Made by a program: the position numbers and the translations under genes
Virus genome (UHGV): UHGV-0054899
Origin: a virus
Length of the DNA stretch: 15,014 bases
Reading direction: 5' to 3' (one strand)
The notes under the pieces: model-generated
The model's input: the letters and a program-made list of their open reading frames with translations, nothing else
What the model was told of the DNA's origin: nothing
The model's database searches: none
Shown here: positions 3,045-15,014 of the stretch, in pieces
Layout: each line of letters starts with the position of its first letter
Position numbering within the stretch: position 1 is the first letter of the stretch

Positions 3045-3127
3045 CTGAACCTTACATAGCAGAGCTATCTGCAAGCGTGGCCGTGATAGTCGGCCTTTTT
3101 TATGCGATACGCAAAAACATCGATTAA
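3041..3127 (+). CDS. possible small hydrophobic peptide (28 aa, MTEPYIAELSASVAVIVGLFYAIRKNID)
   Basis: ATG overlaps the upstream stop (ATGA), with GGAG upstream. It is below the track's length cutoff and overlaps a weak hairpin plus T-run (3079-3102), so it may simply be terminator sequence. Confidence 0.25.
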   Translation: MTEPYIAELSASVAVIVGLFYAIRKNID

Positions 3128-3129
3128 CA

Positions 3130-3152
3130 GGCTCGCATCGCGGGCCTTTTTT
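3130..3152 (+). terminator. Rho-independent terminator candidate
   Basis: GGCUCGC-AUC-GCGGGCC stem (7 bp with one G·U pair) followed by UUUUUU. It sits between the replication/nin-like block and the next gene. Confidence 0.5.
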
Positions 3153-3166
3153 ATGAGGGTAGGATT

Positions 3167-3682
3167 ATGACTAATGAATCAAGCGCAAACGCAATCATTG
3201 GCAACACGCTAAGAATTATCGCTTCTGGCGAATACCATCCCGGAGCAGAACTTACTCAAAAGATGGCGTCTTACATCATCGAACTTGAGCAAAAACTCAC
3301 AGACATGGCAGTACAGCTTGCTAACGCCGAGAGCAAGTGCAGGGAGCTGGCGGCGGCAGAGAACAACCTCATTGATAGCGAATGTCATGTTGCTGAACTG
3401 GAGGACGCGCTACGTGATAAACAGGCATTAATTGAAGCTGCAGAGAAGCGCATAGCAGAGCATAACTTTGAAAATCGGTTACTGGCTAATGCTGATCGCG
3501 ATATCAAAGCATTGCGACAGCGCATAGCAGAACTGGAGGCGGGGACGGTGGCAGTAAAGCTATTCGGTGACTTCCAGATTGTCCACTATGGCGGTTCTGA
3601 GGATTACGCGAAAGGTTATATCGACTGCCAGAACAACTACAACAAGGCGCTTGCCGCCGCTGGCATTGGCGTGAAGGGGTAG
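3167..3682 (+). CDS. Ea22-like coiled-coil protein (putative)
   Basis: ATG at 3167 with GAGGGTAGGA upstream. 171 aa with long heptad-like E/A/L/K-rich stretches (…LEQKLTDMAVQLANAESKCRELAAAENNL…ALRQRIAELEAG…), typical of ead/Ea22-like lambdoid proteins. Family call is from memory. Confidence 0.55.
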   Translation: MTNESSANAIIGNTLRIIASGEYHPGAELTQKMASYIIELEQKLTDMAVQLANAESKCRELAAAENNLIDSECHVAELEDALRDKQALIEAAEKRIAEHNFENRLLANADRDIKALRQRIAELEAGTVAVKLFGDFQIVHYGGSEDYAKGYIDCQNNYNKALAAAGIGVKG

Positions 3683-4780: not shown

Positions 4781-5022
4781 CTTTCGTCATTGAGTTTGAG
4801 GATGGTAAAGAACCTCCTGTACATGCTCATATGGAAGCGTTCGGCGGCAAGGTTGTTGCAGTGGCCTTCCGTGATGCACTAAGCGAGCAGGAAGAACGTG
4901 AGCAGGTAACAAGCATTTATGAGCCGCTAAACACTATCCGTTGTTTTATCTGTAATGTTCGCCACCCAATCGGCGTTGCTTGTCCGTTTAATACGATTAC
5001 TTCGGCGGTAAGCAATGGCTAA
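4768..5022 (+). CDS. hypothetical phage protein
   Basis: ATG at 4768 with AGGAGG 7 nt upstream; 84 aa. Confidence 0.55.
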   Translation: MSKLTFVIEFEDGKEPPVHAHMEAFGGKVVAVAFRDALSEQEEREQVTSIYEPLNTIRCFICNVRHPIGVACPFNTITSAVSNG

Positions 5023-5353
5023 ATCCGCAGCAGAGCGCAAAGCCGCGCAGCGTGCCCGTCTGGCTGAAGCCGGTAACCGCAAGATGGAATTGCAACTCGA
5101 CGAGCAGGAAATGGAGATGCTGGCGCGAAACTGCGCCGCCCGGCGCCCTGGTCGTGCGACGTATGAAATGGCTGAGTACATCGCGCTGTTGATCCGCCAG
5201 GATGATGCCCGGGTGCGTGGTCGTATCAAGTCAATCAGTGCTAACCGGTGTGGTAAGTGTGGCGATGTATTACCTGTTGAGTCGTGTCCGTGCGACGGGG
5301 ATTCGGCATGCTGGGTTACGCGTGGCTGGCATGAGACTAAATTATCAGTGTGA
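5015..5353 (+). CDS. hypothetical protein with C-terminal Cys cluster (possible zinc-binding regulator)
   Basis: ATG at 5015; 112 aa. C-terminal motif C-G-K-C-G…C-P-C-D…C. Last gene before the terminase operon. Confidence 0.55.
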   Translation: MAKSAAERKAAQRARLAEAGNRKMELQLDEQEMEMLARNCAARRPGRATYEMAEYIALLIRQDDARVRGRIKSISANRCGKCGDVLPVESCPCDGDSACWVTRGWHETKLSV

Positions 5354-5361
5354 CATGTCAC
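5350..5361. repeat. perfect 12-bp palindrome GTGACATGTCAC (copy 1)
   Basis: Read directly; overlaps the stop codon of the 5015-5353 gene. An identical copy lies at 7556-7567. Confidence 0.8.
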
Positions 5362-5384
5362 GATATCTGCAATAAATTGCAATG

Positions 5385-5410
5385 GCCGCCGACTATGGCG
5401 GCTTTGTTTT
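5385..5410 (+). terminator. Rho-independent terminator candidate upstream of the terminase operon
   Basis: GCCGCC-GACTAT-GGCGGC (6-bp GC stem) followed by TTTGTTTT. It lies inside the track's 5382 N-terminal extension, which argues against that start. Confidence 0.55.
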
Positions 5411-5421
5411 GCGTGTTACTA

Positions 5422-5454
5422 TTACCAAAACGGTAATTATTACTTCGGTGGTAA
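5422..5454. promoter_or_regulatory. two adjacent inverted-repeat sites TTACC-N5-GGTAA (5422-5436 perfect; 5440-5454 TTACT-N5-GGTAA), candidate operator or activator site for the late operon
   Basis: Read directly, immediately upstream of the terminase small subunit start. An identical perfect site is at 8655-8669. Confidence 0.4.
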
Positions 5455-7571: not shown

Positions 7572-7991
7572 TTACTTAATGGCATCAAATCCAGCGTTGA
7601 TGGCTTCCGCAATATTGGTGGCATTGGTTTTATCGAATTGTCCATTCTGAATAAGTGCCGCATGCAGACATTGTAACTTCATGTTGTATAAGTGTTCGCT
7701 CATGTAATCATCATCACTTTTTTCTTTAGCATAAACAGCGCGAGAAATATCAAACACATTGCCTTTTTCCATTTCAGAACGTTGTGCCGCTATCCAGTCA
7801 TAGCACGTAACGCTAGTGCCATGGTCTTCGCTAAGAGTTAACCCGGCCAGTTTCTCACCCTGAATTACTTCGTAATGCATTTCATTGCCAGCAAAAACGC
7901 CATAAAAAATGCAGTCATCAGCCTGAACGATACGGGAATATTTTAATGGCCATTCATTTAGATACTTAGCCAACATATCAACTGTTTTCAT
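7572..7991 (-). CDS. hypothetical acidic protein of unknown function (139 aa), accessory 'moron' gene
   Basis: Only credible minus-strand gene in the window. Strong Shine-Dalgarno AAGGTGAG ahead of the ATG, own downstream terminator, and visibly lower GC than the flanks. No motif I recognise. Confidence 0.75.
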   Translation of the reverse strand: MKTVDMLAKYLNEWPLKYSRIVQADDCIFYGVFAGNEMHYEVIQGEKLAGLTLSEDHGTSVTCYDWIAAQRSEMEKGNVFDISRAVYAKEKSDDDYMSEHLYNMKLQCLHAALIQNGQFDKTNATNIAEAINAGFDAIK

Positions 7992-8980: not shown

Positions 8981-10651
8981 ATGGCGGAAACCGAAAAAGA
9001 GCGCCTGCTGAAGCAGCTAGCACAGCTGAAGAATGAGCGCACATCGTTCGAATCGCACTGGCGTGATCTGAGTGACTTCATCAATCCGCGCGGTTCCCGC
9101 TTTCTGACGTCTGATGTAAACCGTGATGATCGTCGTAACACTAAGATTGTTGATCCTACCGGCTCAATGGCTCAGCGCATTCTGTCCAGTGGCATGATGT
9201 CAGGCATCACCAGCCCGGCACGTCCGTGGTTCAAACTGGCAACGCCTGACCCTGACATGATGGACTATGGCCCGGTGAAAATCTGGCTGGAAGTCGTGCA
9301 GCGCCGTATGAACGAAGTGTTCAACAAGTCTAACCTGTATCAGTCACTTCCTGTTATGTACGCAAGCCTGGGTACTTTCGGCACCGGCGCTATGGCTGTT
9401 CTGGAAGATGACCAGGACGTGATCCGTACAATGCCTTTCCCTATTGGCAGTTACTATCTGGCAAACAGTCCGCGCGGTAGCGTTGACACCTGCATTCGTC
9501 AGTTCTCCATGACTGTGCGCCAGATGGTGCAGGAATTCGGGCTGGATAACGTCAGTACATCCGTAAAAGGCATGTTGGAAAACGGCACGTATGAAACGTG
9601 GGTGGAGGTTAACCACTGCATCACGCCTAACGTCAACCGCGACAGCGGGAAGATGGACAGCAAGAATAAGCCTTACCGCTCTGTCTATTTCGAAACTGGC
9701 GGTGACGCTGACAAGCTGCTGCGTGAATCCGGTTTCGATGAATTCCCAATCCTGGCTCCGCGCTGGGAAGTGAACGGTGAAGACGTTTACGCCTCATCTT
9801 GCCCTGGTATGTTGGCACTCGGTCAGGTTAAAGCCCTTCAGGTTGAGCAGAAGCGCAAAGCTCAGCTTATCGATAAAGCCACTAACCCGCCGATGGTTGC
9901 CCCGACATCGCTCAAGAATCAGCGTGTTTCCCTGTTGCCTGGCGATGTGACATATCTCGACGTGTTGACCGGTCAGGATGGTTTCAAACCTGCATACCTG
10001 GTTAACCCGAATACTGCCGACCTGCTGGCTGACATTCAGGATACCCGCCAGACCATCAACAGCGCCTACTTCGTTGACCTCTTCATGATGCTGCAAAACA
10101 TCAACACTCGCTCTATGCCGGTGGAAGCGGTGATCGAGATGAAGGAAGAGAAACTGCTGATGCTTGGCCCGGTGCTTGAGCGACTGAATGACGAAGCGCT
10201 TAACCCGCTTATCGATCGCGTGTTCTCAATCATGGCCCGCAAGAACATGTTGCCTGAACCGCCAGACGTTCTTCAGGGTATGCCGCTGCGTATCGAGTAC
10301 ATCTCTGTGATGGCTCAGGCGCAGAAATCTATCGGCCTCACCAGCCTGTCGCAGACAGTTAGCTTTATCGGGCAACTGGCACAGTTCAAACCTGAAGCGC
10401 TCGACAAGCTCGACGTTGATCAGGCTATCGACGCGTTCTCTGAAATGTCAGGCGTATCGCCAACCGTCATCGTTCCGCAAGAGCAGGTACAAGGTATTCG
10501 TGAAGATCGCGCGAAACAGGCTCAGGCAGCACAGGCAATGGCTATGGGTCAGGCGGCAGCGCAGGGAGCCAAGACTCTCAGCGAAACGCAGACCAGCGAC
10601 CCGAGCGCATTAACCGCTATCGCTAATGCAGCAGGAGCACCGCAGCAATGA
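8981..10651 (+). CDS. portal (head-to-tail connector) protein
   Basis: 556 aa, first large gene after terminase. C-terminal Q/A/M-rich tail (…AQAAQAMAMGQAAAQGA…) resembles T7 gp8-type connectors as I recall them. Confidence 0.75.
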   Translation: MAETEKERLLKQLAQLKNERTSFESHWRDLSDFINPRGSRFLTSDVNRDDRRNTKIVDPTGSMAQRILSSGMMSGITSPARPWFKLATPDPDMMDYGPVKIWLEVVQRRMNEVFNKSNLYQSLPVMYASLGTFGTGAMAVLEDDQDVIRTMPFPIGSYYLANSPRGSVDTCIRQFSMTVRQMVQEFGLDNVSTSVKGMLENGTYETWVEVNHCITPNVNRDSGKMDSKNKPYRSVYFETGGDADKLLRESGFDEFPILAPRWEVNGEDVYASSCPGMLALGQVKALQVEQKRKAQLIDKATNPPMVAPTSLKNQRVSLLPGDVTYLDVLTGQDGFKPAYLVNPNTADLLADIQDTRQTINSAYFVDLFMMLQNINTRSMPVEAVIEMKEEKLLMLGPVLERLNDEALNPLIDRVFSIMARKNMLPEPPDVLQGMPLRIEYISVMAQAQKSIGLTSLSQTVSFIGQLAQFKPEALDKLDVDQAIDAFSEMSGVSPTVIVPQEQVQGIREDRAKQAQAAQAMAMGQAAAQGAKTLSETQTSDPSALTAIANAAGAPQQ

Positions 10652-11503: not shown

Positions 11504-12214
11504 ATGAATTTATTTGATCGTTTGCTGCATCGCCGTCTTTGCAATGAGCAACCTGCTGATGGTGGCGCAGCTCCTGCTGCATCTGAACCCGCAGCATCAA
11601 CTGGTGATAATCCGGCACCCGCTGGCGATCCGGCTAAACCAGAAGGCGATAAGCCACAACCTGGCACTGAATCCGACAAACCTCAGGAAGAAAAACCTGC
11701 TGATGGTGATAAGCCAGAAGATAAAAAGCCTGGTGAAGACAAAGAGCAGAAGCAGGAAGGTGCGCCGGAGAAATACGAGTTCAAACCAGCTGAAGGTCAG
11801 GAACTTGATGCTGCCGCTCTGGAGCAGTTCGAGCCTATCGCCCGCGAACTGAACCTGACTAATGAGCAGGCGCAGAAGATGGTCGATCTGTACGGCACCA
11901 AGATTATGCCAATGGTCCAGCAGCAGCAGGCGGAAGCCTGGCAGAAAACCACCGAACAGTGGGCTGCTGACGTTAAGGCGGACAAGGAAATCGGCGGAGA
12001 CAATCTCACCGGTAACCTGAGCGCGGCACAGCGTGCTCTTGCTCAGTTCGGCACACCTGAACTGAAAGAATATCTGGAAGGCACCGGCCTGGGTAATCAC
12101 CCTGAGCTGGTTAAAGCCTTCATAAAAGTCGGTAAGGCCATGTCAGAAGACGGCATGGTAACCGGGAAAGAAAGCGGTCAGCGTAGTGCTGCCGAAGTGC
12201 TCTATGGCAAATAA
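11504..12214 (+). CDS. scaffolding protein (putative)
   Basis: ATG at 11504 with AAGAAGGT upstream. N-terminal Pro/Glu/Lys/Asp-rich low-complexity region followed by a helical C-terminal part, immediately ahead of the putative capsid gene. Confidence 0.55.
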   Translation: MNLFDRLLHRRLCNEQPADGGAAPAASEPAASTGDNPAPAGDPAKPEGDKPQPGTESDKPQEEKPADGDKPEDKKPGEDKEQKQEGAPEKYEFKPAEGQELDAAALEQFEPIARELNLTNEQAQKMVDLYGTKIMPMVQQQQAEAWQKTTEQWAADVKADKEIGGDNLTGNLSAAQRALAQFGTPELKEYLEGTGLGNHPELVKAFIKVGKAMSEDGMVTGKESGQRSAAEVLYGK

Positions 12215-12228
12215 GAGAGGAAATAACC

Positions 12229-13215
12229 ATGGCTGTTAAAGGCTTAACTGCGCTGACGCTGGCAGACTGGGGTAAGCGCGTAGATCCTAATGGGAAAATC
12301 GATAAAATTACCGAGCTTCTCAGTCAAACGAATCCGATTCTGGAAGACATGCTGATTGTTGAAGGAAACCTTCCAACTGGACACCGCACTACCATTCGCA
12401 CTGGCTTACCGGATGCCACTTGGCGACTGCTGAACTACGGCGTGCTAAACAGCAAGAGCACCACTGCACAGGTAACGGATTCCATTGGTATGCTGGAAAC
12501 TTATGCCGAGATTGATAAATCTCTGGCAGACCTGAACGGGAACACCTCTGAATTCCGTCTGTCTGAAGACCGGGCATTCCTTGAGGCAATGAACCAGAAG
12601 ATGGCTCAGACCCTGTTCTACGGTGATACCAGCGTTAACCCACAGCAGTTTATGGGACTGGCATCTCGTTATTCCAGCAAGTCAGCCGGTAATGGTCAGA
12701 ACATTATCGACGCTGGCGGCACTGGCACCGATAACACCTCTATCTGGCTGGTTGTGTGGGGTGAAAACACCGTTCACGGCATCTTCCCTAAAGGTCAAAA
12801 GGCAGGCCTGCATATGGAAGACAAAGGTCAGCAAACTCTGAAAGACTCCGCTGGTGGTCAGTATGAAGGCTATCGCACCCACTATAAGTGGGATAACGGC
12901 CTGACCCTTCGTGACTGGCGCTATGTTGTTCGCATCGCGAACATCGATGTAAGCGATCTGTCTGTTCCAGCCTCTGCTGCAAACATCGTCACCCAGATGG
13001 TTAAAGCGCTGCACCGAGTTCCTAACCTGAAAATGGGGCGTGCTGTTTTCTACATGAACCGCACCGTTGCTCAGGCTCTCGACCTGCAATCTCTGGATAA
13101 AGCCTCTCTGGCTCTGTCCGTCAAAGAGACAGAAGGCGAATGGTGGACCACTTTCCGTGGCATTCCGATCCGTGAAACCGATGCGATTCTGGAAACAGAA
13201 GCGCGCGTTGTTTAA
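12229..13215 (+). CDS. major capsid protein (putative)
   Basis: 328 aa with strong AGAGGAAATAACC-ATG initiation region, directly downstream of the scaffold-like gene. Assignment rests on position and size, not a recognised motif; it does not resemble T7 gp10 or lambda gpE as I recall them. Confidence 0.5.
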   Translation: MAVKGLTALTLADWGKRVDPNGKIDKITELLSQTNPILEDMLIVEGNLPTGHRTTIRTGLPDATWRLLNYGVLNSKSTTAQVTDSIGMLETYAEIDKSLADLNGNTSEFRLSEDRAFLEAMNQKMAQTLFYGDTSVNPQQFMGLASRYSSKSAGNGQNIIDAGGTGTDNTSIWLVVWGENTVHGIFPKGQKAGLHMEDKGQQTLKDSAGGQYEGYRTHYKWDNGLTLRDWRYVVRIANIDVSDLSVPASAANIVTQMVKALHRVPNLKMGRAVFYMNRTVAQALDLQSLDKASLALSVKETEGEWWTTFRGIPIRETDAILETEARVV

Positions 13216-13231
13216 CGCCTGTTATTAACTG

Positions 13232-13251
13232 ATGGGCCTTAACCGGCCCAT
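13232..13251 (+). other. stem-loop without U-tract (ATGGGCC-TTAACC-GGCCCAT) after the capsid gene
   Basis: 7-bp perfect stem read directly; followed by GAATGG rather than a T-run, so more likely an mRNA stability or processing element than a terminator. Confidence 0.3.
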
Positions 13252-13266
13252 GAATGGAGAAAGAAA

Positions 13267-13707
13267 ATGATCCTCGACAAACTGTTGATGTTCTCCGAAG
13301 CGCAGGCGGTTACGGCTTCCGCAGCTTCTACTGATGTAATCGATCTCGGCCCTATCGACGGTACCCGCCGTGATATCGGTGTTGGTTACCCGCTGGAGTT
13401 CTGGGCAAATGTGAATACCACTGCAACAGCAGGCGGTGCTGCAACCCTGAACGTTCAGTTGCAGACCAGCCCGGATAACTCCACCTGGACCACGCTGTAC
13501 GACAGCGGCACGTTGGCGCTAGCGGCATTGACTGCTGGAAAGCGCCTGTTTTCCGCGAAGGTACCGGCAGGTGTCCAGCGTTATCTGCGTGTTAACTATG
13601 TGGTCGGTACTGGTCCGCTGACGGCCGGCGCTTTCACCTCGGGAATTAACCTGGATGTTGATAACAACAGCCCGTACTACCCGATTCGTTCAAAAGTGAC
13701 TGGCTAA
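13267..13707 (+). CDS. hypothetical structural protein (possible decoration or accessory head protein)
   Basis: ATG at 13267 with GGAGA upstream; 146 aa, Ala/Thr/Gly-rich. Confidence 0.55.
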   Translation: MILDKLLMFSEAQAVTASAASTDVIDLGPIDGTRRDIGVGYPLEFWANVNTTATAGGAATLNVQLQTSPDNSTWTTLYDSGTLALAALTAGKRLFSAKVPAGVQRYLRVNYVVGTGPLTAGAFTSGINLDVDNNSPYYPIRSKVTG

Positions 13708-13717
13708 GGGGATAGCG

Positions 13718-14098
13718 ATGTCAGGTGAAAAAGCAAGATACCGCGTCCTGCGTTTATCTCACATTCATAACAACCTCTGGCCAGAAGGATCTGAAGTTGA
13801 GTATGACGGCGAACCAGGTACGGCGCTGGAGCCACTGAACGATGCGGCGAAATTGGCAAAAGAGATCGCCGAAAAGCGTAAAGGAAGATCGGCTTCTGTA
13901 GTTGTCAATGTTCCATCTCCCGCTGCGGTTCATCAAGTAGTGGAAGAAGTGAAATCTGATGGCACTGGAGCGGTAAGTGAAGACCTTACTCTGCTTCGAC
14001 AGCAGTATGAGGATTTACTAGGCAAGAAGCCGGGCAATAAAACGGCTGAAACTCTGGCAAAAGAGATCGCCGAAAAGCGTGCTGAACTGGGCGTCTAA
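13718..14098 (+). CDS. hypothetical protein with internal duplication (…LAKEIAEKR… twice)
   Basis: ATG at 13718; 126 aa. An exact 26-nt direct repeat TGGCAAAAGAGATCGCCGAAAAGCGT occurs at 13854-13879 and 14055-14080, in frame and 201 bp apart. Confidence 0.55.
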   Translation: MSGEKARYRVLRLSHIHNNLWPEGSEVEYDGEPGTALEPLNDAAKLAKEIAEKRKGRSASVVVNVPSPAAVHQVVEEVKSDGTGAVSEDLTLLRQQYEDLLGKKPGNKTAETLAKEIAEKRAELGV

Positions 14099-14114
14099 GC
14101 CTCGCTAATCAAAC

Positions 14115-14136
14115 AAGGGGCTTCGGCCCCTTTATT
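14115..14136 (+). terminator. Rho-independent terminator candidate inside the structural operon
   Basis: AAGGGGC-TTCG-GCCCCTT stem-loop followed by TATT. Confidence 0.45.
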
Positions 14137-14149
14137 GCAGGAGTCCGTT

Positions 14150-14473
14150 ATGGATCTGGTAAACCTCAAAACCGGCACCGACACCTATCAGGATGAGGAT
14201 GGCAAAACCCAGACTCGTGATGATTATCCGTGGGGCCTTTGCATCGAATTGAACAACGAGACGCTCGCCAAACTCAAGGCAACGCCTCAATCTGCTGGTA
14301 CTGAAGTAATGATCACCGCAAAGGCAACCATTCGCTCAACGTCTACCCGCGAAACGGAAGATGGAATGCAGCATAACGCCAGCCTGCAGATCACTGATAT
14401 GGCTCTCAGTCCAGTATCAGGAGAGCAACCGAAGTCAGCAGCGCAAACTCTCTACGGTGGGGAGGATGATTAA
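14150..14473 (+). CDS. hypothetical structural-module protein
   Basis: ATG at 14150 with AGGAG 6 nt upstream. The track's 14135 start is a TTG inside the terminator. Stop overlaps the next start (TAATG). Confidence 0.5.
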   Translation: MDLVNLKTGTDTYQDEDGKTQTRDDYPWGLCIELNNETLAKLKATPQSAGTEVMITAKATIRSTSTRETEDGMQHNASLQITDMALSPVSGEQPKSAAQTLYGGEDD

Positions 14474-15014
14474 TGGCCTCAGTTATCGAGATCTGCAACC
14501 GTGCGCTGAGCAATATCGGCAACACCCGCAGCATAAACAGTCTGATCGAATCCAGCAAAGAGGCCGGGCAGTGCTCCCTGCATTTTGATGCGTGCCGCGA
14601 TGCTGCTCTGGCTGACTTCGACTGGAATTTTGCAACCAAGCGTGTGGCGCTTGCTGATACCAATAATCCGCCTCCTGACTGGCAATACGCTTACCAGTAC
14701 CCATCTGATTGCGTCCGTATAACCGAGATCATGCCTACCGGCATACGTAATCCTACCGCTGCGCAGCGCATTGAATATGTTGTCGGTTCCAATGAAGACC
14801 TGACAGGTAAGCTCATTTACACCGATCAGCCGAAAGCGTGGTTGAAGTACGTGGCGCGGGTTACTGACGTCAATATGTATGACGCCATCTTTATGGAGGC
14901 GCTTTCCTGGCGTCTGGCGGCAGCCATCAATATGGTGCTGACCGGAAGCGCAGATCTCGGTAACAATGCACTGACGATGTACAACCGTGTGATCCTGAGT
15001 GCTGGCTCACATAG
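14473..15014 (+). CDS. tail adaptor / tail tubular protein A-like (T7 gp11-like by recollection), 3' partial
   Basis: ATG at 14473 after GGGGAGGA; the frame stays open to the window end, so it is absent from the ORF track. N-terminal MASVIEICNRALSNIGNTRSINSLIES… has the same pattern as the T7 gp11 N-terminus as I recall it. Confidence 0.5.
   Translation, partial: MASVIEICNRALSNIGNTRSINSLIESSKEAGQCSLHFDACRDAALADFDWNFATKRVALADTNNPPPDWQYAYQYPSDCVRITEIMPTGIRNPTAAQRIEYVVGSNEDLTGKLIYTDQPKAWLKYVARVTDVNMYDAIFMEALSWRLAAAINMVLTGSADLGNNALTMYNRVILSAGSH

Follow-up and report, generated by a model that had tools for sequence, protein, structure and literature searches.

A conserved terminator-type hairpin precedes the capsid staple gene of epsilon15-like prophages

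Introduction

What does a short GC-rich hairpin do when it lies between two genes of a phage structural operon? We address this question for a hairpin at positions 14115–14132 of the UHGV virus genome UHGV-0054899; the whole stretch of 15,014 nucleotides that was analysed is hereafter called the window. The initial annotation had read the hairpin as probably a partial internal terminator that sets the ratio of head proteins to downstream proteins. Phages have been documented to use leaky internal terminators (PMC9163698). The gene that follows the hairpin is gp10. In the epsilon15 capsid, the gp10 "staple" is present in an essentially 1:1 ratio with the capsid protein gp7 (PMC9207676), and gp10 has also been described as a dispensable decoration protein (PMC7602432). 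A literature search found no transcriptome and no mapping of transcript 3' ends for Uetakevirus phages, the genus to which the window belongs.

Gene layout around the hairpin

Comparison by megablast identified the window as an epsilon15-like temperate podovirus prophage of the genus Uetakevirus. The Salmonella phages PAT1, 65FD and 66FD are 93–96% identical to the window region, Enterobacter phage Tyrion is about 77–80% identical, and phiV10, TL-2011b and others are about 74–75% identical in the gp10–gp11 part. The closest complete E. coli genome is that of EPEC E2348/69, with 97% identity over 13200–14500. Genes were assigned from PHROGs, Pfam, PDB and annotated relatives. The portal gene (8981–10651) and the protease gene (11504–12214) are followed on the + strand by the gene of the major capsid protein, the gp7 equivalent (12229–13215; phrog_212 major head protein, E = 2e-105, with the same annotation in 65FD and Tyrion), and by that of a Bbp16-family capsid cement-like protein, the gp8 equivalent (13267–13707; Pfam PF21190 Bbp16, E = 4e-43). 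Next on this strand is the gp9 equivalent (13718–14098; phrog_590), annotated in phiV10 as similar to epsilon15 gp9 and ending in a TAA at 14096–14098; the coordinates given earlier for this open reading frame agree with the ORF listing.

The gene directly downstream of the hairpin encodes the gp10 capsid staple/decoration protein (14150–14473, + strand). Its product matches epsilon15 gp10, chain N of 3J40 (PDB 3j40_N, E = 8.9e-22), as well as Pfam PF21628 Gp10-like (E = 6e-47), and the homologue in E. coli E2348/69 carries the RefSeq name "gp10: capsid staple protein". The gp10 stop codon overlaps the start codon of the gp11 equivalent as TAATG at 14473. This last gene (14473–15014, + strand, running off the window) encodes a tail tubular protein A-like product (phrog_394 tail protein, E = 4e-74), in line with the annotation of 65FD and epsilon15. 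The functional picture is therefore corrected in one respect: the hairpin had been taken to divide head proteins from downstream proteins, but the next gene is that of the capsid staple, and the real head/tail boundary is the TAATG at 14473. The run of head genes is tightly packed, with only two gaps of about 50 nt, each of which holds one hairpin named in the initial annotation.

This position constrains what the hairpin could do. Efficient termination would starve gp10, which is required in capsid-protein amounts; since gp10 is needed at about 1:1 with the capsid protein, any termination upstream of it must be leaky or overridden.

Anatomy of the hairpin

The anatomy, position and strand of the hairpin can be read directly from the window. 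On the + strand, the arm AAGGGGC (14115–14121) is followed by the loop TTCG (14122–14125), the arm GCCCCTT (14126–14132) and then TATTG. The stem is a perfect 7 bp, with five G-C and two A-U pairs, and is capped by a C(UUCG)G tetraloop, as expected of an intrinsic terminator. The folding energy is -12.1 kcal/mol for the 18-nt stem-loop and -9.6 kcal/mol for its 14-nt G-C core. The hairpin lies inside the 51-nt gap between gp9 and gp10, co-oriented with all flanking genes. It starts 16 nt past the gp9 TAA and ends 6 nt before the gp10 Shine-Dalgarno sequence AGGAG (14139–14143, + strand), which itself lies 6 nt before the ATG at 14150.

The T-rich tract TTTATTG (14131–14137, + strand) gives a tail with five T in 7 nt past the G-C core. 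Its first two T can also pair with the AA at 14115–14116, and the tail is reduced to UAUUG if both A-U pairs form. The tail score is 4.16, compared with 4.7–5.5 for the best terminator candidates in the window. A low termination efficiency is predicted because the U-tract is interrupted, and is UAUUG alone once the A-U pairs form; the same interruption, which suggests leaky termination, also counts against a terminator. The UUCG stem-loop with a short T-run 3' of 13718–14098 that had been reported earlier is thus borne out by the sequence, and an imperfect U-tract fits its description as "partial".

Statistics on the single sequence were not significant, which is a further argument against a terminator. 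The window holds two perfect 7-bp GC-rich hairpins, exactly the pair named in the initial annotation, compared with 1.8 ± 1.5 in dinucleotide shuffles, and the local fold of the 61-nt region had a z-score of -1.24 relative to shuffles. We therefore relied on comparative data. A scan of the whole window with Rfam 15, on both strands and at E ≤ 1, yielded zero matches.

Several other candidate explanations for the gap were tried and rejected. Sequestration of the Shine-Dalgarno sequence by CUC..CU, as drawn in the minimum free energy fold, has outer pairs that are broken in 7–15 of 49 relatives without compensatory change. As to a gp10 promoter in the gap or at the 3' end of gp9, no sigma-70-like site was called there, and the candidate GCTAAT is unconserved. 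Finally, gp9 and gp10 share a reading frame that stays open from the gp9 TAA to the gp10 ATG (14096–14152). The length of the gap shifts by 1–2 nt in phiV10-type, L069-type and other relatives, and since the frame relation varies in this way, a fusion protein made by stop-codon read-through is unlikely to be meaningful.

Conservation and covariation

We collected 91 loci from IMG/VR and GTDB genomes by gp10 homology, and about 100 more from three diverged clades. Identity was expressed as the mean pairwise value over 71 distinct haplotypes of the enterobacterial clade. It reached 99.2% in the 14-nt hairpin core and 84.7% in the 7-nt T-tail, while the 12-nt upstream spacer had 58.1%; within gp10, third codon positions had 59.2% and first and second positions together 91.4%. 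With the core and the T-tail far above the spacer and the synonymous sites, these values indicate that the hairpin is under strong selection.

In an alignment of 49 sequences, 96.2% of the stem cells were paired. The penultimate pair changed from A-U to G-C, a compensatory change, in 12 distinct sequences, and 14 stem cells held G·U pairs, which on a - strand transcript would be A·C mismatches. This pattern argues that pairing is selected in the + strand RNA. The core of the gp10 Shine-Dalgarno sequence, GGAG, was kept in all 49 aligned relatives; the A preceding it is replaced by G in the rows of the epsilon15 clade and in L079, and by T in the Pseudomonas row.

The combination of a GC hairpin and a T-tract is kept at the gp9|gp10 gap in four diverged clades, while the sequences themselves differ. 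The Pantoea-type clade has GGGGCCGG(A/U)UGGCCCC, also written GGGGCCGGWUGGCCCC, followed by 7–8 T, and in one of its members the stem is the compensated GGAGGCC/GGCCTCC. In the Pseudomonas-type clade, GGGGCUUCGGCCCC is retained, with UUUCUUUCC after it, even though identity in gp10 is only 48%. At the same gap, the epsilon15 clade carries AAAAGC-CGGGGCC-AUUC-GGCCCCG-GCUUUU, and among the diverged clades the stem CGGGGCC-AUUC-GGCCCCG is found with a GCUUUU or a UUUUU tail. T-rich tracts lie 3' of the hairpin in all clades (TTCTTG, TTTCTTG, TTTTTTG, TTTTTTTT, TTTCTTTCC and GCTTTTCT). Covariation, strand asymmetry and the hairpins of the other clades all point to selection on the hairpin and its U-tract. 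No hairpin was found upstream of more distant gp10-like genes in GC-rich contigs.

One relative, L203 (IMGVR_UViG_2740892431_000020, 9180–9300), has no gp10. Its gp9 end, hairpin, T-tract and CAGGAG are joined straight to the start codon of gp11 (tail tubular A), and its hairpin thus stands at the head/tail boundary. This arrangement agrees with gp10 as a dispensable addition positioned immediately 3' of the hairpin.

Strand preference and terminator scores

A terminator score of the d'Aubenton-Carafa type was computed with modern energy parameters, and the values are hence approximate. The hairpin at 14115–14132 scored +24.8 on the + strand and +17.3 on the - strand; other terminator candidates in the window scored 17–42. 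In seven clade representatives, the scores on the + and - strands were 24.8/17.3, 26.8/19.9, 24.7/-1.1, 24.0/7.6, 56.7/26.2, 31.1/22.1 and 47.7/3.5, respectively. The + strand score was the higher one in all seven.

Could the hairpin act mainly on the other strand? A bidirectional or mainly antisense terminator would have the main task of keeping - strand transcripts, such as those of morons or conversion genes in the opposite orientation, from running into the head genes. A simple terminator scanner called 14115–14132 on the - strand only, with the tail GTTTGATT, because it extends the stem into the T-run. Apart from this call, the - strand score of +17.3 in the window, the A-rich 5' flank common among relatives, and the terminators annotated on both strands at the syntenic gp9/gp10 gap of the epsilon15 record (AY150271.2) would agree with such a role. 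However, the - strand score is near zero in three of the seven clades (-1.1, 7.6 and 3.5) and below the + strand score in every one, the 14 G·U stem cells turn into A·C mismatches on a - strand transcript, and no - strand gene lies downstream within the structural module of the window. We consider an antisense role improbable.

The epsilon15 annotation, which is of rho-independent terminators, also means that the terminator call had already been made for the type phage. In this respect, 14115–14132 is an ordinary kind of element. The exact 18-mer AGGGGCTTCGGCCCCTTT occurs in at least 120 viral contigs, with a GC content from 33% to 63%, and at least 117 contigs that carry it have no gp10 homologue. 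Among the matches listed, 101 of 125 sites have six or more T within 8 nt past the stem, and many of the approximately 45 sites read by eye immediately follow a stop codon, closely precede a ribosome-binding site, or both. AGGGGCTTCGGCCCCTTT is a generic device, positioned as a generic minimal terminator would be. The terminator-type reading of the initial annotation is accordingly upheld by the + strand anatomy of an intrinsic terminator, the score of +24.8, the excess of the + strand in all seven clades, the hairpin and T-tract of four clades and the epsilon15 annotation.

A sister hairpin after the capsid gene

The second intercistronic hairpin, ATGGGCC-TTAACC-GGCCCAT (13232–13251, + strand, -12.0 kcal/mol), has no T-run and ends 4 nt before the gp8 Shine-Dalgarno sequence GGAG (13256–13259). 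An alignment of the capsid-gene hairpins with MAFFT put stems of unequal length out of register, and the hairpins were therefore counted by a custom script. Among 43 distinct intergenic sequences between the major capsid protein gene and gp8, we found 27 distinct hairpins. They are GC-rich, with 6–9 bp, energies of -11 to -18 kcal/mol, many G·U pairs and zero T-tracts; 24 of the 27 end exactly 4 nt before the gp8 GGAG (range 3–5). Examples of their stems are ATGGGCC/GGCCCAT, GTGGGTC/GACCCAC, AGCGGGGC/GCCCCGCT, AGCGGCCCG/CGGGCTGCT, GGCGGGC/GCCCGCC and ACGGGCTGG/CCAGTCCGT. Many of the G·U pairs fit the + strand RNA only, and the comparison indicates a strongly covarying + strand RNA structure at 13232–13251. 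The hairpin is absent from the epsilon15 clade. Pseudomonas-clade relatives have two hairpins after the capsid gene, the second of which pairs CUCUCC with the Shine-Dalgarno sequence GGAGAG.

The terminator score of 13232–13251 was negative on both strands (-15 and -7). An intercistronic stabiliser is expected to lack a U-tract and to conserve structure over sequence; 13232–13251 shows both properties, but 14115–14132 does carry a U-tract. The sister hairpin is not terminator-like, and by analogy with known intercistronic hairpins it is more likely an mRNA stabiliser 3' of the most abundant product. That it keeps a near-fixed distance from the Shine-Dalgarno sequence may point to a connection with translation initiation. 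It had been suggested that this U-less hairpin plays a role related to that of 14115–14132. As a conserved RNA structure it stands, with its 27 covarying stems; as a terminator it does not, and given the negative score a "related role" can mean a post-transcriptional one only.

These features of the sister hairpin imply that the phages do use non-terminator intercistronic hairpins, and the same could hold for 14115–14132. The hairpin would then not usefully stop RNA polymerase but work on the completed polycistronic mRNA, in one or more of three ways. It could block 3' exonucleases and so stabilise the capsid-gene segment upstream; it could form a cap-like 5' stem that guards the gp10 segment once an endonuclease has cut; or it could insulate the gp10 ribosome-binding site, keeping it single-stranded, with the U-rich linker serving as an S1-binding enhancer for this abundant protein. 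A U-rich leader beside the Shine-Dalgarno sequence can indeed also be explained as a translation enhancer. A purely post-transcriptional role would account for the short and nearly fixed distance between hairpin and Shine-Dalgarno sequence in all clades (8–12 nt), which recalls the 4 nt (range 3–5) of the covarying, U-less sister hairpin, and for the hairpin staying with the ribosome-binding site even without gp10, as in L203. In addition, an attenuator would be oddly placed here, ahead of a gene whose protein is required in roughly as many copies as the capsid protein. The main counter-argument is the T-tract, which follows the gp9|gp10 hairpin in every clade, with up to 7–8 T, and never follows the sister hairpin. 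Moreover, the same hairpin with a T-run is found in many unrelated phages, in several of them directly 3' of a stop codon, and the + strand terminator scores are clearly positive. We regard a purely post-transcriptional role as the second most likely reading, to be taken seriously though less probable than a terminator.

Pentamers after the stop codons

The pentamer GCCTC (14099–14103, + strand) directly follows the gp9 stop codon and is nearly invariant: each of its positions is conserved in 45–47 of the 47 rows that have the element, and the next 12 nt or so vary freely. It is complementary to GGGGC in the 5' arm of the hairpin, with an energy of -5.8 kcal/mol for the helix alone, and partly to the gp10 Shine-Dalgarno sequence. 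This raises the question of a translation-coupled attenuator. In such a scheme, GCCUC would pair with GGGGC as an anti-terminator unless it is covered by the ribosome terminating at the end of gp9, and read-through into gp10 would thereby depend on gp9 translation.

The near-invariance of GCCTC between variable neighbours would be explained by such a mechanism. Across relatives, 98.7% of the cells of the GCCUC:GGGGC helix are paired, three of its pairs differ on both sides in one Pantoea sequence, and RNAalifold, applied to the MAFFT alignment, gave this helix as the consensus in place of the hairpin. CCUC or UCUC also follows the stop codon in some Pseudomonas-clade relatives. However, the helix has to compete with a hairpin of -12.4 kcal/mol. 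Its predicted occupancy in partition-function folds has a mean of 0.14 and is 0.00 in the window; because of this low occupancy, we did not accept the RNAalifold helix as the structure. No consistent pairing partner of GCCTC emerged from the partition-function folds across relatives. The Pantoea "covariation" has a better upstream partner, with which it forms a small hairpin over the stop codon, and the element is absent from the epsilon15 clade and from most Pseudomonas-clade relatives. An attenuator reading of GCCTC is thus possible but unlikely, and control of gp10 by gp9 translation through it would be very unlikely.

A similar C-rich pentamer, CGCCT or CCCCT, lies after the stop codon of the capsid gene (13216–13220). 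It can be speculated that the two intercistronic hairpins, each at a short and nearly constant distance from the following ribosome-binding site, and the two post-stop pentamers (TAA-CGCCT, 13213–13220; TAA-GCCTC, 14096–14103) act together as one system at the RNA level. This system would link the arrival of the upstream ribosome to termination, to the stability of mRNA segments and to initiation at the next head gene, and would fix the ratio of capsid, cement and staple proteins with no need for separate promoters. We think the odds are well against it.

Recombination joints near the hairpin

In one relative, L018 (IMGVR_UViG_2531839651_000003), another sequence stands in place of the hairpin's left arm, some 60 nt upstream of gp10, and the breakpoint falls in the loop. 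The sequence upstream of the breakpoint resembles the reverse complement of the protease-gene region of the window at about 12178–12195. At the hairpin, L018 carries either an inversion or a join introduced by assembly.

A role at the DNA level, in which the GC-rich palindrome serves as a recombination "linker" at a module boundary, or as a cruciform, with no RNA role, would be in keeping with this breakpoint. Mosaic joints also lie nearby, with nucleotide homology to phiV10-type phages beginning at about 14045–14064, and the gp10-less arrangement of L203 sets in right behind the hairpin and Shine-Dalgarno sequence. Nevertheless, substitutions of the G·U type preserve pairing in the + strand RNA only. 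The hairpins of other clades differ in sequence at the same place; what has been conserved is thus not the identity that recombination would need. The asymmetry of the T-tract would also be left without explanation. A purely DNA-level role is hardly credible.

Proposed mechanism

Taken together, we favor the reading that 14115–14132 is a leaky + strand intrinsic terminator which doubles as a 3' stabiliser in the late structural operon, and assign it a probability of roughly 0.6. The conservation and covariation of the hairpin are observed; that termination occurs, its efficiency, and the stabilising effect are what we infer. The process would run as follows. On leaving gp9, RNA polymerase would transcribe the highly stable G-C hairpin with its C(UUCG)G cap, followed by the imperfect U-tract UUUAUUG. 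A fraction of the polymerases would release about 7–9 nt past the stem, shortly upstream of the ribosome-binding site of gp10, and the remaining polymerases would read through into gp10 and the tail genes. In transcripts that end at the hairpin, the 3' stem-loop would shield the head-gene message, from portal to gp9, from 3' exonucleases. Given the need for gp10 at about 1:1 with the capsid protein, termination would be weak or overridden in lytic growth, and the strong AGGAG site with its U-rich leader would supply the gp10 output.

If 14115–14132 does terminate, a small puzzle arises as to how gp10 reaches 1:1 with the capsid protein. This might serve as a simple test case of how terminator leakiness, mRNA stability and ribosome-binding-site strength are combined in phage late operons. 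The practical value of the finding is modest. It lies in annotation: a terminator-type hairpin at 14115–14132 and a structured hairpin at 13232–13251 can be added for epsilon15-like prophages, which are widespread in Enterobacterales and Pseudomonas and most of whose records leave both gaps unannotated.

Comparison with known systems

The closest counterpart is the predicted terminator between genes 9 and 10 of epsilon15, of the same genus (AY150271.2, stem_loop 7664..7686 on the + strand and 7647..7681 on the - strand). It occupies the same syntenic gap, from the gp9 stop codon to the gp10 Shine-Dalgarno sequence, and shares the architecture of an A-rich flank, a GC hairpin, a 4-nt loop and a T-tract. 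The epsilon15 hairpin differs in sequence and is longer, with -18.8 kcal/mol, and unlike the window its clade has neither the GCCTC pentamer nor the capsid-gene hairpin. The terminators of epsilon15 and of the window are both predictions.

T-phi of T7 and other inefficient internal terminators of phage late operons are leaky intrinsic-type hairpins in a co-directional structural cluster, as 14115–14132 is proposed to be (PMC9163698). The assumed purpose, balancing expression along the operon, would also be shared, and the tail tube genes of the window podovirus are T7 gp11/gp12-like. T-phi comes after the capsid gene, and its target is T7 RNA polymerase. In contrast, 14115–14132 lies two genes past the capsid gene, before a second abundant head protein, and would use host RNA polymerase.

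Intercistronic hairpins that stabilise mRNA include the pufA–pufL stem-loops of Rhodobacter puf and the REP hairpins of E. coli malE–malF. They are stable and GC-rich, lie 3' of the gene of the most-needed product, and are not known to have a functional U-tract or to act as terminators. The U-less hairpin 13232–13251 would fit this type very well, and 14115–14132 might fit it as a second role. A near-fixed 4-nt spacing to the Shine-Dalgarno sequence, as seen at 13232–13251, is not known as a feature of the puf and REP hairpins.

In the late operon of lambda, terminators are read through by Q-modified polymerase (antitermination). The window resembles it in having a terminator-type hairpin in the late operon of a temperate phage, and a promoter-like site and hairpin (5350–5411) just upstream of the terminase genes. 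With a terminator-like hairpin at 5384–5411 upstream of these genes, late transcription may be antiterminated, in which case 14115–14132 would not act as a terminator in lytic growth. No Q-like or other antiterminator was identified; the product of 5015–5353 has no Pfam match and only the PHROG label "transcriptional regulator".

Other features of the window

Upstream of the gene of the terminase small subunit, the region 5350–5450 holds the promoter-like sequence GTGACA-17-TAAATT with the palindrome GTGACATGTCAC, followed by the hairpin GGCCGCC-GACTAT-GGCGGC and TTTGTTTTG. A terminator is annotated at the matching place in epsilon15. The region may be the end of the early operon or the leader terminator of a late promoter, and the true start of the terminase small subunit is probably the ATG at 5448, not 5382.

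Within gp9, the direct repeat GGCAAAAGAGATCGCCGAAAAGCGT is found at 13855–13879 and at 14057–14081. At 126 aa, the protein is longer here than in phiV10 and Tyrion (both 111 aa) or in epsilon15 (94 aa), a difference that suggests an internal duplication. The second GGCAAAAGAGATCGCCGAAAAGCGT copy lies near the point where nucleotide homology to phiV10-type phages sets in.

A lone - strand ORF (7572–7991, 139 aa, no Pfam match) separates the terminase genes from the portal gene, with a - strand terminator-like hairpin on either side (7551–7532 and 8030–8011). It looks like a moron, as in epsilon15 at the same place (2181–2546, terminator 2559–2582). Finally, a tandem pair of + strand terminator-like hairpins, with TTTTTTATG after each, occupies 3079–3155, between the replication/Ren-like genes and the ORF 3167–3682.
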